From positions 51,584,001 through 51,648,000 of the forward strand of contig OZ024745.1 in the NCBI GenBank assembly GCA_964016885.1: a DNA stretch of 64,000 bases, in the 5' to 3' direction. Below, one piece after another: positions 20,489-46,462 of the stretch. Each line of letters begins with the position of its first letter. Within the stretch, counting starts at the first letter, position 1. This stretch comes from Eledone cirrhosa. Its lineage: Eukaryota. Under the pieces are notes generated by a model that made no database searches, was not told where the DNA came from, and was given only the letters and a program-made list of their open reading frames with translations. The translations under genes were made by a program, and so were the position numbers.

Positions 20489-21055
20489 AATATATGAACA
20501 ATCGTCTGGTTGTGGATCCAACCAACCAACCGGAATTTTATAAATTCCTAAATTTATAAATTTAATTTATAATAAATTGAAGTGAAAGCAATGGTGCGTG
20601 TGTTTCTTATTGGCAACATGACCCTCCCAAAGCATAACAATATCGGTTTCAACACACGTTTTCAGATAAAGAATCTTGCTAAACAAATTCAGAAACGAAA
20701 TATATATATATATATATATATATATATATATATATATATATATATATATATATATATATATATATAAAAACAAATAACGAAACGAAATTAAATTTCGTTT
20801 CGCTTCTAACTCACTTTTGTATGACTGACGCTTAAACAATTAAGTTAAAGTGTACATCTACATATGTATACGGAAGTATTAGTATGCATATAAATACACA
20901 CATGTATACATATGTACATGTACTGAGTTTTTCACTAGACACTTTACAGTGAGTGTCAGCTAGTCTGTATGTAACCACACAGACGGACCGGGTTTTAGAG
21001 TCATACGAGTTTTCAAGGAAATACATTTCCTCTATTCTCCAGAGGGTCAGACAGG

Positions 21056-21098
21056 AATATTGGACTAGTTTCGATGTTATTACATCTCATCAGCAATA
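21056..21098 (-). ncRNA. Minimal type I hammerhead (E1 left arm)
   Basis: Reverse complement reads TATTG-CTGATGA-GATGT AATA ACATC-GAAA-CTAG-TC-CAATA. Confidence 0.85.
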
Positions 21099-21679
21099 AT
21101 TACCCATCTTCCGGCTTCTCTGGAGAATTGTAAAAGCACATATCGTTATATGCTTTTTCTATGAAAATTAGTAGTGGGTAGACTAATTTGCATAGAACGT
21201 GAGTCATTGTACGCACCGGTTCAGCGGAAACGATAAAAACAAATAACGAAACGAAATTAAATTTCGTTTCGCTTCTAACTCACTATTGTATGACTGACGC
21301 TTAAACAATTAAGTTAAAGTGTACATTAAGTTAAAGTTACATACAGACTAGCTGACACTCACTGTAAAGTGTCTAGTGAAAAACTCAGTACATGTACATA
21401 TGTATACATGTGTGTATTTATATGCATACTAATACTTCCGTATACATATGTAGATGTACACTTTAACTTAATTGTTTAAGCGTCAGTCATACAAAAGTGA
21501 GTTAGAAGCGAAACGAAATTTAATTTCGTTTCGTTATTTGTTTTTATCGTTTCCGCTGAACCGGTGCGTACAATGACTCACGTTCTATGCAAATTAGTCT
21601 ACCCACTACTAATTTTCATAGAAAAAGCATATAACGATATGTGCTTTTACAATTCTCCAGAGAAGCCGGAAGATGGGTA

Positions 21680-21724
21680 AATATTGCTGATGAGATGTAA
21701 TAACATCGAAACTAGTCCAATATT
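21680..21724 (+). ncRNA. Minimal type I hammerhead (E1)
   Basis: AATATTG-CTGATGA-GATGT AATA ACATC-GAAA-CTAG-TC-CAATATT. Complete core, 7-bp stem I, 5-bp stem II, palindromic ACTAGT stem III; predicted cut after C21717. Confidence 0.9.
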
Positions 21725-22148
21725 ACTGTCTGACCCTCTGGAGAATAGAGGAAATGTGTTTCCTTGAAAACTCGTATGACTCTAAAACCCGGTCCGTCTG
21801 TGTGGTTACATACAGACTAGCTGACACTCACTGTAAAGTGTCTAGTGAAAAACTCAGTACATGTACATATGTATACATGTGTGTATTTATATGCATACTA
21901 ATACTTCCGTATACATATGTAGATGTACACTTTAACTTAATTGTTTAAGCGTCAGTCATACAAAAGTGAGTTAGAAGCGAAACGAAATTTAATTTCGTTT
22001 CGTTATTTGTTTTTATCGTTTCCGCTGAACCGGTGCGTACAATGACTCACGTTCTATGCAAATTAGTCTACCCACTACTAATTTTCATAGAAAAAGCATA
22101 TAACGATATGTGCTTTTACAATTCTCCAGAGAAGCCGGAAGATGGGTA

Positions 22149-22193
22149 AATATTGCTGATGAGATGTAATAACATCGAAACTAGTCCAATATT
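22149..22193 (+). ncRNA. Minimal type I hammerhead (E1, second plus copy)
   Basis: Same motif as 21680-21724; predicted cut after C22186. Confidence 0.9.
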
Positions 22194-22442
22194 CCTGTCT
22201 GACCCTCTGGAGAATAGAGGAAATGTGTTTCCTTGAAAACTCGTATGACTCTAAAACCCGGTCCGTCTGTGTGGTTACATACAGACTAGCTGACACTCAC
22301 TGTAAAGTGTCTAGTGAAAAACTCAGTACATGTACATATGTATATATGTGTGTATTTATATGCATACTAATACTTCCGTATACATATGTAGATGTACACT
22401 TTAACTTAATTGTATATATATATACATATATATATATATATA

Positions 22443-22661
22443 TTTTGAAACAGTGAGCAGGTTTGAAATTAGAAAATAGAATAGTTTGCACCGTATTTTT
22501 GACTAAAGGAATTTTAGCCTGATAATGGGGTTTAGAACCCTCAGATAAATGGAAAAAGATGAGTATTGACGTACATACTCATCTTTTTCCATTTATCCGA
22601 GGGTTCTAAACCCCATTATCAGGCTAAAATTCCTTTAGTCAAAAATACGGTGAAAGCTATT
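22443..22661. repeat. Foldback insertion in (TA)n (arms ~22480-22566 / 22575-22661)
   Basis: ~80-87 bp near-perfect inverted repeat with 8-nt spacer TGACGTAC; TA tracts on both sides. Confidence 0.85.
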
Positions 22662-43765: not shown

Positions 43766-43894
43766 AGAAACATATACAGAACATGTACGGCGCTTACCCG
43801 GTCACGTAATGAAACCAATGATACAAAATATATTTTTGCGACGTAGAAATTAGATAGAAATATTTCTGGAAGAAACAATTGTATTTCCATATGT

Positions 43895-43977
43895 GAAGAA
43901 GAAGAAGAAGAAGAAGAAGAAGAAGAAGAAGAAGAAGAAGAAGAAGAAGAAGAAGAAGAAGAAGAAGAAGAAGAAGA
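43895..43977. repeat. (GAA)n microsatellite
   Basis: Direct reading. Confidence 0.98.
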
Positions 43978-44101
43978 ATATCATGATTAAGTGACGTATC
44001 GAAGGCACACACATTTATGGACCATTTATTAACGTTGGAAAATATTTGAATATATAAATATATATATGTATATATATACGTATATATATATATATATATA
44101 T

Positions 44102-44422
44102 AAGAGGGTGTTAAAGTTTGCTTGAAGCATTGTGAAATGTGTAAAATACGTAGTTTAGAAAGCCACAACAATGCAGAGGGAAATCTCGAGGTAGGAAGTG
44201 AATGATAGATAAGAGAAATAGGAGAAAGTGAAAATAGAGAGAGACAAAGATGAAAACAAAACAAAGGTAGAAGGGTTATCGTAGTGGAGGGTAACCCTTC
44301 TGCCTTTGTTTTGTTTTCATCTTTGTCTCTCTCTATTTTCACTTTCTCCTATTTCTCTTATCTATCATTCACTTCCTACCTCGAGATTTCCCTCTGCATT
44401 GTTGTGGCTTTCTAAACTACGT
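44102..44422. mobile_element. Two-armed foldback insertion in (TA)n, family E3 (second copy)
   Basis: Arms ~44147-44280 and ~44290-44422 inverted; close sequence match to 24597-25077. Confidence 0.87.
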
Positions 44423-44459
44423 ATATATATATATATATATATATATATATTAATATATC

Positions 44460-45610
44460 AAACTCAGACTCAGAAGCTCCCGCGTCTTGCGACGCATGAG
44501 GCAATCATAGTGTTCCACCGCGTTCGGTCAGCAGCCAGTTGCACAGCGTCCCGCCATTGTCTGTTTGTCGCTCGCAGGTCCCTCTCAACTGTCTGGCGCC
44601 GGTTCATTTTGGGTCGCCCTCTCCGTCTGCTTCCCTCTGGGTTCCATTTAAGTACTTGGTTCGCCAGTCTCTCCGGGGGAAGTCTCAAAGCGTGCCCAAA
44701 CCAGCCCAGGCGTCGTTTGCAGATGGCAGAAGAGACTAGCTGCTGGTTGGTGCGGTTCCTGACTTCCTGGTTTGTTACATGGTCACTCCATTTAATCCCC
44801 AGGATCTTTCGCATACACCTGGAATCGAATGCGTCCAACTTCTTCTCTTGGCTGGTCTTAAGGTGCCATGCTTCACTTCCGTACAAGAGTATGGACAGCA
44901 CGTTGCTGTTGTAGAATCTCATCTTTGTTTTGAGGGTGAATTTCTTGCTCTTCCAGATCTTGACAAGCTGGTTAAATGCTGCTGAAGCCTTTCCCATTCT
45001 ACATTGCAATTCACTGTCCATGGCGCCCCCATTGTCAATGGAGCTTCCTAGGTAGGTGAAGTTGTCCACTATCTCCACCTCCCCCTGTTCAATGAAAACA
45101 CTAATTGGTGATGGGTGTGTCCCAGATAACATGCTTTTGGTCTTCTTAGCACTGATATTGAGACCTAAGCTTCCTGCTTCGACATTGATATTGTTCATAA
45201 TGATTTGCTGGTCAGCTGTGCTCTCTGCAAGTGCAACAATATCGTCCGCAAAGTCCAGGTCAGACAACTTTTGCTCTCCCACCCAAGATATACCCTTGTC
45301 TTTAGACGCTCTTCTCAGTACCCAGTCAATGGCTATGTCAAAGAGAATTGGAGAGAGCGAGCAGCCCTGACGCACACCAGTAACCACCTCAAACCAGTCA
45401 CTGTAACCATCCTCTGTCCGTATGCAGCACTTGAAGTTTGCGTAAATTTGTTTGTTTGCCGAAATGACTTTCTGCTGCAGACCATACTCATGCATGATGC
45501 TGCAGAGTGACGGTCGATGAATGCTATCGAATGCCTTGGAGAAATCGATGAAGCTGACGGCGAGGGGCATCTGGAATTCGTTGTACCTCTCAATGATGCG
45601 GCGTAACGTA
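44460..45610 (-). mobile_element. 5'-truncated RTE-clade LINE (RT domain and C-terminus)
   Basis: ORF 44470-45570: FIDFSKAFDS, GVRQGCSLSP, DLDFADDI, FTYLGS, LLYGSEAW, RRLGWFGH, RRRGRP. Short (CTGAGT)2 tail; between (TA)n tracts. Confidence 0.92.
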
Positions 45611-45656
45611 AAAATAAATATATATATATATATATATATATATATATATATATATA

Positions 45657-46462
45657 TAATACAATATGTTGAAAAGGTAACACACTAGAGAGAGATACAG
45701 TGTGCTATCAATAAAACAGGGGAAAACCACCAGTGTATGGAATCTATAACCTATGAAAGGCAGAGTAGTCACACGTTAATTAAAAATATTAATTACATTC
45801 TAAATACATACCTCTATAACTATATAACACACGTACAAATCCAAAGAGATCTGTTTCGCCAGTAAGGATTTCTTCTCATTTGAGCACATTATTGACAGGG
45901 AATAGTGAGATTCTATGGCTCCGTTAATTTATCGTGATATTTCGCTCCTTATAACAGTCTATCCTCTCTCTCAGTTTGGATGAGCACACCTCTCTGAATG
46001 GTTTTGGGCTGCCCTTTCTAGCAGCTCGTCCCTCACTGCCCTCAAACACGCTGTGACTTCTCTCTCCCACGTGTAGCTGGACGGTCGCTTAAATTCACTT
46101 AGTGTTGTCTGAAATGTATAGCCTTACACACGCTGATGAACCATGGGTTATTTAATTTCTGTCAACAACTTACTGGCGAAACAGATCTCTTTGGATTTGT
46201 ACGTGTGTTATATAGTTATAGAGGTGTGTATTTACACTTTAATTAATATTTTTAATTATTGTGTGTCTACTCTGCCTTTCATAGGTTATAGATTCCATAC
46301 ACTGGTGGTTTTTCCCTGTTTTATTGATGGCGCACTGTATCTCTCTCTAGTGTGTTACCTTTTCAACATATTGTATTTTAAAGAGCTCAGGATTTCTTCT
46401 CCTTTGAGCACATTATTGACAGTGAATAGCGAGTGTCTATGGTTCCGTTAATTTATCGTGAT
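45657..46462. mobile_element. Retrozyme-like insertion E4: 524-bp hammerhead unit (minus arm 45657-45866, plus arm 45866-46462) in (TA)n
   Basis: GGATTTCTTCTC at 45866 and 46390 (524). The left arm is the reverse complement of ~46169-46377. Confidence 0.86.
46126..46208 (+). ncRNA. Full-length type I hammerhead ribozyme (E4)
   Basis: ACACACG-CTGATGA(46133)-ACCATGGGTT..AACTTACTGGC-GAAA(46178)-CAGATCT CTTT GGATTTG-TA-CGTGTGT. 7-bp stem I, hairpin stem III, GUA triplet; predicted cut after A46201. Confidence 0.85.

Follow-up and report, generated by a model that had tools for sequence, protein, structure and literature searches.

Non-coding tandem units in TA tracts of the Eledone cirrhosa genome carry the insertion footprint of Penelope-like elements

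According to published accounts, Penelope-like elements (PLEs) insert into (TA)n, leave inverted copies that are truncated at the 5' side and bear a tail at only one of their ends (PMC8557442, PMC3846280), and the formation of such inverted, one-tailed insertions is stated as open in the available text of one of them (PMC8557442). PLEs have also been proposed to mobilise retrozymes (PMC7229834, 10.64898/2026.07.22.740005), a proposal that, in the accessible part of the later source, rests on co-occurrence and on similarity of pseudo-long terminal repeats (pLTRs; 10.64898/2026.07.22.740005). Here we analyse five insertions from four families (E1, E2, E3a and E3b, and E4) in a 64,000-nucleotide stretch of the Eledone cirrhosa genome (contig OZ024745.1, positions 51,584,001 to 51,648,000; hereafter the window). 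Each insertion consists of divergent arms ending at two fixed sites of the repeat unit, and we consider it likely that PLE enzymes produced them by priming from both ends of a DNA break on one RNA. The architecture itself is known; what is new is that the non-coding tandem units E1, E2 and E4 carry the PLE insertion footprint.

Self-comparison and tandem scans confirmed the order (TA)n, leftward arm, rightward arm, (TA)n at all five sites, where an initial annotation of the window had placed it. Left arms lie on the minus strand and right arms on the plus strand throughout. E1 (locus L001), built from a 469-nt unit, has a left arm of 1.20 units (20766..21326) and a right arm of 2.30 units (21336..22412) between TA tracts at 20700..20765 and 22413-22443, bearing out the proposal that arms can exceed one unit. 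E2 (unit 624 nt; L051) consists of arms of about 1.3 units (28888..29691) and about 1.25 units (29690..30466), flanked by tracts at 28754-28887 and 30465-30492, and E4 (unit 524 nt; L081) of arms of 0.40 unit (45657..45866) and 1.15 units (45865..46464), with tracts at 45614-45658 and 46461-46509. The arms of E3a (24598..24844 and 24874..25079) lie between tracts at 24580-24597 and 25078-25118, and those of E3b (44102..44289 and 44290..44422) between tracts at 44050-44102 and 44422-44458. The four families are as dissimilar as had been judged by eye, none of the six pairs showing similarity at E<=0.01. Within the window the two arms of an insertion differ by 4/490 mismatches in E1, 25/763 in E2, 10/209 in E4 and 1/131 in E3b; those of E3a show 0 mismatches and 5 gap positions.

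The two-armed architecture also recurs genome-wide. First-look searches of the 3.0-Gb genome returned 658 candidates for E1, 3902 for E2, 3104 for E4 and 1696 for E3, and 40 candidates were scored per family; the window's own copies (retained only in the arm-nesting comparison), overlapping duplicate loci, L293 (a duplicate of L274) and two insertions cut by locus edges were dropped before counting. In 40 evenly spaced 10-kb stretches, terminal inverted arms were present in 13 of 132 segments between TA tracts. Both comparison sets had fewer: random segments gave 3 of 217 (P=4e-4), and those bounded by other microsatellites 1 of 81 (P=0.02). The fetched loci together yielded 102 two-armed segments that fell into 35 end clusters, with offsets mostly of 30-120 nt and an offset of 0 in one. 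The suggested enrichment for (TA)n was upheld, 47 of 54 E1 3' ends having a TA tract within 12 nt as against 523 of 10000 random positions (5.2%), and polarity was constant, with divergent arms in all 18 E1 loci having both strands (35 loci listed, one a duplicate). Two further two-armed insertions between TA tracts, from other families, occur in the window at 22444-22660 (offset 37 nt) and 49487-49645 (89 nt), and nested inverted pairs at 48291-50910.

The 3' ends of the arms are fixed and paired. Two such ends, one short and one long, occur in every family and lie 42-88 nt apart: at unit positions 74-79 and 148 in E1, about 153 and 198 in E2, and 512-516 and 600 in E4, the two ends of E3 being separated by 42 nt. 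Each of the five window insertions has one of each kind, with the long end on the left arm in E1, E2 and E3b and on the right arm in E3a and E4 (in the latter at unit position 76 of the next unit). Short and long ends were paired in 75 of 77 scorable two-armed insertions. The ratio of short-plus-long to same-end copies was 21:1 among E1 best hits (25 two-armed), 19:0 in a position-ordered E1 sample (21 two-armed; P=2e-6), 4:1 in E2 (12 two-armed), and 19:0 in E3 (20 two-armed) and 12:0 in E4 (18 two-armed), where the queries fixed the long end and only the partner end is informative; four of these five samples are best-hit samples. The initial annotation had priming begin at arbitrary AU-rich points, and this did not survive: an E1 unit offers 14 TAT sites, yet 52 of 54 E1 ends fall at the two fixed positions. 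It had correctly noted T/A microhomology at the ends, which share 2-4 nt of T/A identity with the tract; microhomology is therefore not what selects the site. In vitro, two internal reverse-transcription starts bound the tail of a PLE, and both strands are cut and extended (PMC11167929). The two sites at which the E1 ends fall match the two starts that define the PLE tail in that report (PMC11167929).

E3 is the truncated end of an autonomous PLE encoding a reverse transcriptase (RT) and a GIY-YIG endonuclease. Longer copies run upstream into a frame of up to 750 residues with RT and C-terminal GIY-YIG domains; the 750-residue frame in L145 matches RVT_1 at E 1.5e-11 and GIY-YIG at E 2.7e-4, the latter just under the curated cut-off. 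DKG and GPKF motifs are visible in the protein, its linker cysteines fit neither CX2-5CxxC nor CxCX5C exactly, and it matched no solved structure. Partial tandems, that is pLTRs, occur in L148 and L153, and in tandem copies the sequence past the long end reads into the open reading frame (ORF). In the window, the E3a left arm is a truncated pLTR with a short, tailless end, and the right arm, a pLTR with a 42-nt tail, includes the first ten codons of the PLE ORF (ATG at 25050), where it stops; the pLTR and tail of rotifer Penelopes extend into the ORF start likewise (PMC3846280, in the part available). E3b has its tailed pLTR end on the left and its tailless end on the right. The proposed link to PLEs fits the data; E3 is a PLE end, and E1, E2 and E4 bear the same footprint. 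For E3 itself the unit proved to be the ordinary end of a full-length PLE, an outcome that the initial annotation had named as contrary to its reading. Of the 53 mapped 5' ends of E3 arms, 16 are gathered in a 19-nt interval that lies behind an AT-rich box, some 300 nt upstream of the long end; transcription probably starts at this cluster, and the abundance of tiny E3 palindromes would then be explained. Other long tandem arrays adjoin E3 copies at L147:1-2130 (470-nt period) and L156:1-5035 (466-nt period).

All four families had been called hammerhead-bearing, a description that suits E1, nearly suits E4, may apply to E2 in a permuted form and fails for E3, in which CUGANGA is absent from both strands of the 3440-nt unit (core variants such as U3-A8 were not searched). 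E1 is a non-coding tandem unit with one type I hammerhead motif per unit. The motif at 21680..21724 (+) has a 7-bp stem I, a 5-bp stem II and a palindromic stem III, with a predicted cut after 21717; a second copy lies at 22149..22193 (+; predicted cut after 22186) and another in the left arm at 21058..21098 (-). Exact matches to the E1 core number 3128 genome-wide, with 0 in the control. E1 was the only family matched by Rfam, below the gathering score (HH9 at 31.6-36.2 bits against 52), and no Rfam match reached that score; hits to miRNA families corresponded to the palindromes and were set aside. The E1 motif is of the minimal, palindromic-stem-III kind described for PLEs, a kind predicted to act as a dimer in the accessible text of PMC4209133. 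A substitution hotspot with mixed base changes lies at E1 unit positions 341-344 (window 21740-21743), 23-26 nt past the predicted cut, with 17 events against 1.6 expected among best hits and 7 against 1.6 in the ordered sample; it could be an RT error site or a modified base. In the E4 motif (46126..46208, +; predicted cut after 46201) the two core boxes are present and stems I and III are each 7 bp long; at 10.1-11.1, the pair closing stem II, the motif has an A-C mismatch (CTGATGAA in 33/36 copies, TGGCGAAAC in 29/36).

In E2 a type I fold does not close, there being no suitable GAAA box downstream of CUGANGA. The blocks instead stand in S-G-C order, with covarying stems among 16 diverged sequences (the truncated L060 was left out of the alignment). 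In this fold 90.7% of cells are paired and two-sided changes occur at 18 of 33 pairs, compared with 0 of 500 shuffles and with slid controls at 29-48% paired, controls that are inflated by the structure having been drawn from the sequences tested. Stem I is 99% paired, with 5/6 pairs changing on both sides, and stem III 95% paired, with 2/5 doing so. The direct stem II is reduced to one pair (81% paired), and its two strands are each paired instead to a scaffold strand that lies upstream (74% and 92%). The fold lies at 29731..29834 (+), with the scaffold strand replacing the direct stem II and a predicted cut after 29778; further copies have predicted cuts after 30401 (+) and at 28990 and 29615 (-). 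A pattern for its relatives gave 7441 matches and 0 in the control. We regard the E2 fold as a putative hammerhead-like structure in the rare permuted SGC order. More hammerhead-like motifs, from other families, were seen at window positions 20450 and 54182 (+) and recur in several fetched loci.

Both arms of an insertion share a haplotype and appear to derive from the same template. In the ordered E1 sample, divergence was lowest within an arm (1.07%), slightly higher between partner arms (1.44%) and far higher between insertions (6.26%), and the nearest arm was the partner in 35 of 44 comparisons; among best hits, minor alleles were concordant between arms in 13 cases and discordant in 2. 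Diagnostic alleles were usually fixed across all units and both arms (16/16, 14/14 and 11/11), with some exceptions. The contrast between arms and loci is weak in E2 (2.5% vs 2.6%) and moderate in E4 (4.8% vs 7.2%). Since 40 of 59 E1 arms exceed one unit and E1 arms show no excess of 5' ends at the hammerhead cut (2 of 57, near the chance expectation), the template was not a linear cut monomer. Sharing of unit-specific variants, which bears on a multimer as against a circle, was 8/123 in register and 14/399 out of register (P=0.20), and the chances of an RNA circle and of an uncut multimer as the template of E1, E2 and E4 seem about evenly balanced. A 499-nt contig of run X1 (depth 2.4) closes the E1 unit on itself; a tandem array would look alike, and we did not use it as evidence.

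Two primings are not the only way in which such arms could share a haplotype. A single cDNA from one DNA end might snap back and copy itself as the second arm, a route related to the self-priming model outlined in the available text of PMC3846280. This would account for the shared haplotype, one arm can be contained in the other in 14/20 E3, 29/41 E1, 11/13 E4 and 5/5 E2 pairs, and a few junctions (L037, L129, L140) are symmetric. However, in 20 of 79 pairs each arm has sequence absent from the other (12/41 in E1, 6/20 in E3, 2/13 in E4 and 0/5 in E2), as in the E3 copy L151, with a short-end arm of about 2.0 kb and a tailed arm of about 0.95 kb, and fold-back gives no ground for stopping at a fixed second site. 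The non-nested arms refute it as the only route, and we judge it improbable; arms that share a haplotype yet are often non-nested argue for two primings on one RNA. A different proposal is that E1, E2 and E4 are pLTRs or untranslated regions (UTRs) of unsampled coding PLEs, tandemised later at the DNA level and without an RNA cycle of their own. It is true for E3, and long arrays do show block duplication at the DNA level. Against this, no mapped E1, E2 or E4 arm continues into a PLE ORF of its own (L154 being a junction with an inverted E3 piece), the arms keep wrapping round the unit, and the diagnostic alleles are usually fixed as described above, leaving the proposal unlikely.

That the palindromes might be assembly or read fold-backs at TA tracts is suggested by one E1 copy, L006, which has two long ends and an identical flank on both sides; it may be a larger inverted duplication or an assembly fold-back. 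Elsewhere the arms differ from each other, their ends lie asymmetrically at sites fixed for the family, and the flanks on the two sides are not the same. Moreover, among independent short reads, 7 and 5 of run X23 span opposite-strand joints, and in run X5 a contig passes from the E1 unit into (AT)n at the long site. The E1 family is present in short-read data of other runs at 90-99% identity, and the short reads examined gave no coverage of the E1 inversion junction. An artefact would be very surprising on this evidence. Non-autonomous DNA transposons of the miniature inverted-repeat or foldback kind would share the TA target and the inverted ends, but symmetric, fixed terminal inverted repeats are absent, all 13 surveyed inverted-arm elements being asymmetric by 45-118 nt; inner junctions vary in every copy, and E3 is the end of an RT element. 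We consider this origin extremely improbable.

The reading that we favour, PLE enzymes priming from both break ends on one RNA, can be put as a sequence of steps. The endonuclease would cut both strands of the TA tract; of the resulting DNA ends, one would start its cDNA at the long site and its partner at the short site, which lies 42-88 nt farther upstream, and both cDNAs would run toward the RNA 5' end before being joined head to head. Priming from both ends of a (TA)n break with head-to-head joining was already part of the initial annotation and fits the data. The E3 template would often be a short-headed mRNA starting about 300 nt upstream, giving tiny palindromes, and that of E1, E2 and E4 would be longer than one unit, giving arms of more than one unit. 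Hammerheads would yield unit-length RNA but would not set the arm ends. A more specific version, which we offer tentatively and think somewhat doubtful, has a dimer of a PLE-type enzyme sitting on one small RNA circle, cutting both strands of the TA tract and priming one cDNA from each DNA end at the two fixed sites, the copying then rolling past the ribozyme, with several unrelated non-coding circles parasitising this route and one of them, E2, being processed by an active, non-circularly permuted, scaffolded hammerhead.

Several observations weigh against this reading, beyond the query and sampling limits on the pairing counts given above. In nineteen additional two-armed copies, an arm ends outside both sites. 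The in vitro start site did not differ between strands in the accessible part of PMC11167929, so the strict pairing of short with long ends is not explained by that work. Single-armed copies make up one third to over half of the total: 11 against 23 two-armed in E1 (ordered set), 19 against 12 in E2, 12 against 20 in E3 and 15 against 18 in E4, with 16 single-armed among E1 best hits. The initial annotation would have been contradicted by a single-armed majority, and E2 goes some way in that direction; some 'single-armed' copies (L278, L034, L048, L144) have short or rearranged second arms below the cut-offs. Gene conversion between inverted repeats could be the source of the shared haplotype. 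Arrays of 14-16 units show block duplications, which suggest growth after insertion, and therefore provide no proof of rolling-circle copying. PLE endonucleases are abundant in the genome (10,596 and 58,702 first-look candidates), and none of 80 PLE-centred loci, a small share of the more than 10,000 candidates, had E1, E2 or E4 as its own UTR; their matches there were separate insertions or short, diverged pieces. Searches with the GIY-YIG family and with a Hydra-like protein, and an inspection of 20 long-ORF loci, likewise yielded no autonomous partner of E1, E2 or E4.

Other traces of PLEs were encountered. No PLE ORF was continuous with SGC-type motifs in 27 loci inspected. Truncated PLE endonuclease ORFs occur at window 18102-19004 and 52118-52726 (+); their linker, CxCX5C, is that of the Hydra clade. 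In a young relative the frames are intact (808 residues) and the end offset is about 170 nt, and the descriptors used detected no hammerhead in it. One TA-bounded stretch, L154:3304-6625, unites an E3 arm with a short end and an E2 arm with a long end through short inverted pieces, an arrangement that reflects equally well a two-template event or nesting with deletion. The tail lengths of the two families are near each other, about 45 nt in E2 and 42 nt in E3. Six single-armed copies (L022, L045, L046, L056, L080, L098) have their 5' end joined to 58-266 nt of another repeat family, a piece that itself adjoins a TA tract. Empty-site reconstruction from host repeats gave none for 100 insertions. 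The window also contains elements with RT of the long interspersed nuclear element (LINE) type at 773-9236, 38878-42544 and 44470-45613; one of these stops at the left-hand TA tract of E4, with no continuation on the far side.

We found no literature on two-armed retrozymes with paired fixed ends or on an animal SGC hammerhead, most subscription journals lying outside our coverage. Among described systems, endonuclease-positive (EN+) PLEs are the closest. They share the head-to-head inverted, 5'-truncated copy, the tail at one end and partial tandems (PMC3846280, PMC8557442, PMC11167929), as well as (TA)n targets (in the Naiad and Hydra clades) and the extension of pLTR and tail into the beginning of the ORF; E3 shows these PLE traits directly. 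In contrast, the tail in the available accounts is optional and of 30-40 bp, whereas here it is 42-88 nt and the pairing of short with long ends is nearly obligatory; E3 has no CUGANGA hammerhead, and E1, E2 and E4 encode no protein. This near-obligatory pairing, together with the non-nested arms, constrains the mechanism to two primings per event. L1 twin priming likewise starts cDNA from two DNA ends on a single RNA, with an inverted arm as the result. L1 arms do not overlap, however, and the second site is variable, whereas the insertions described here have arms with almost complete overlap and two sites that are both fixed.

Animal non-LTR retrozymes resemble E1, and E4 with one deviation, in being non-coding tandem units of a few hundred nucleotides with a type I hammerhead in each (PMC7229834, 10.64898/2026.07.22.740005). 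Their arrays are head-to-tail in the published text available, where neither inverted arms nor fixed double ends nor TA targeting is described. Those retrozymes have been shown to be expressed, to cleave and to form circles, whereas E1, E2 and E4 are known here from sequence alone, and the 80 PLE-centred loci revealed no sequence link between them and a pLTR. The insertions provide instead a footprint-level link between PLEs and retrozymes, and they name exact RNA start sites for an existing in vitro system. E2 has its counterpart in type-SGC hammerheads such as HRIMA-1, with which it shares the order of cleavage site, GAAA and CUGANGA, covarying stems I and III and an extra pseudoknot helix (PMC10085705). 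The published examples, as far as that source presents them, come from metatranscriptomes (PMC10085705). In E2, a single base pair makes up the direct stem II, whose halves pair with a scaffold, and cleavage is predicted. Should E2 cleave, an animal genome would hold in abundance a permuted hammerhead that is known from environmental RNA.

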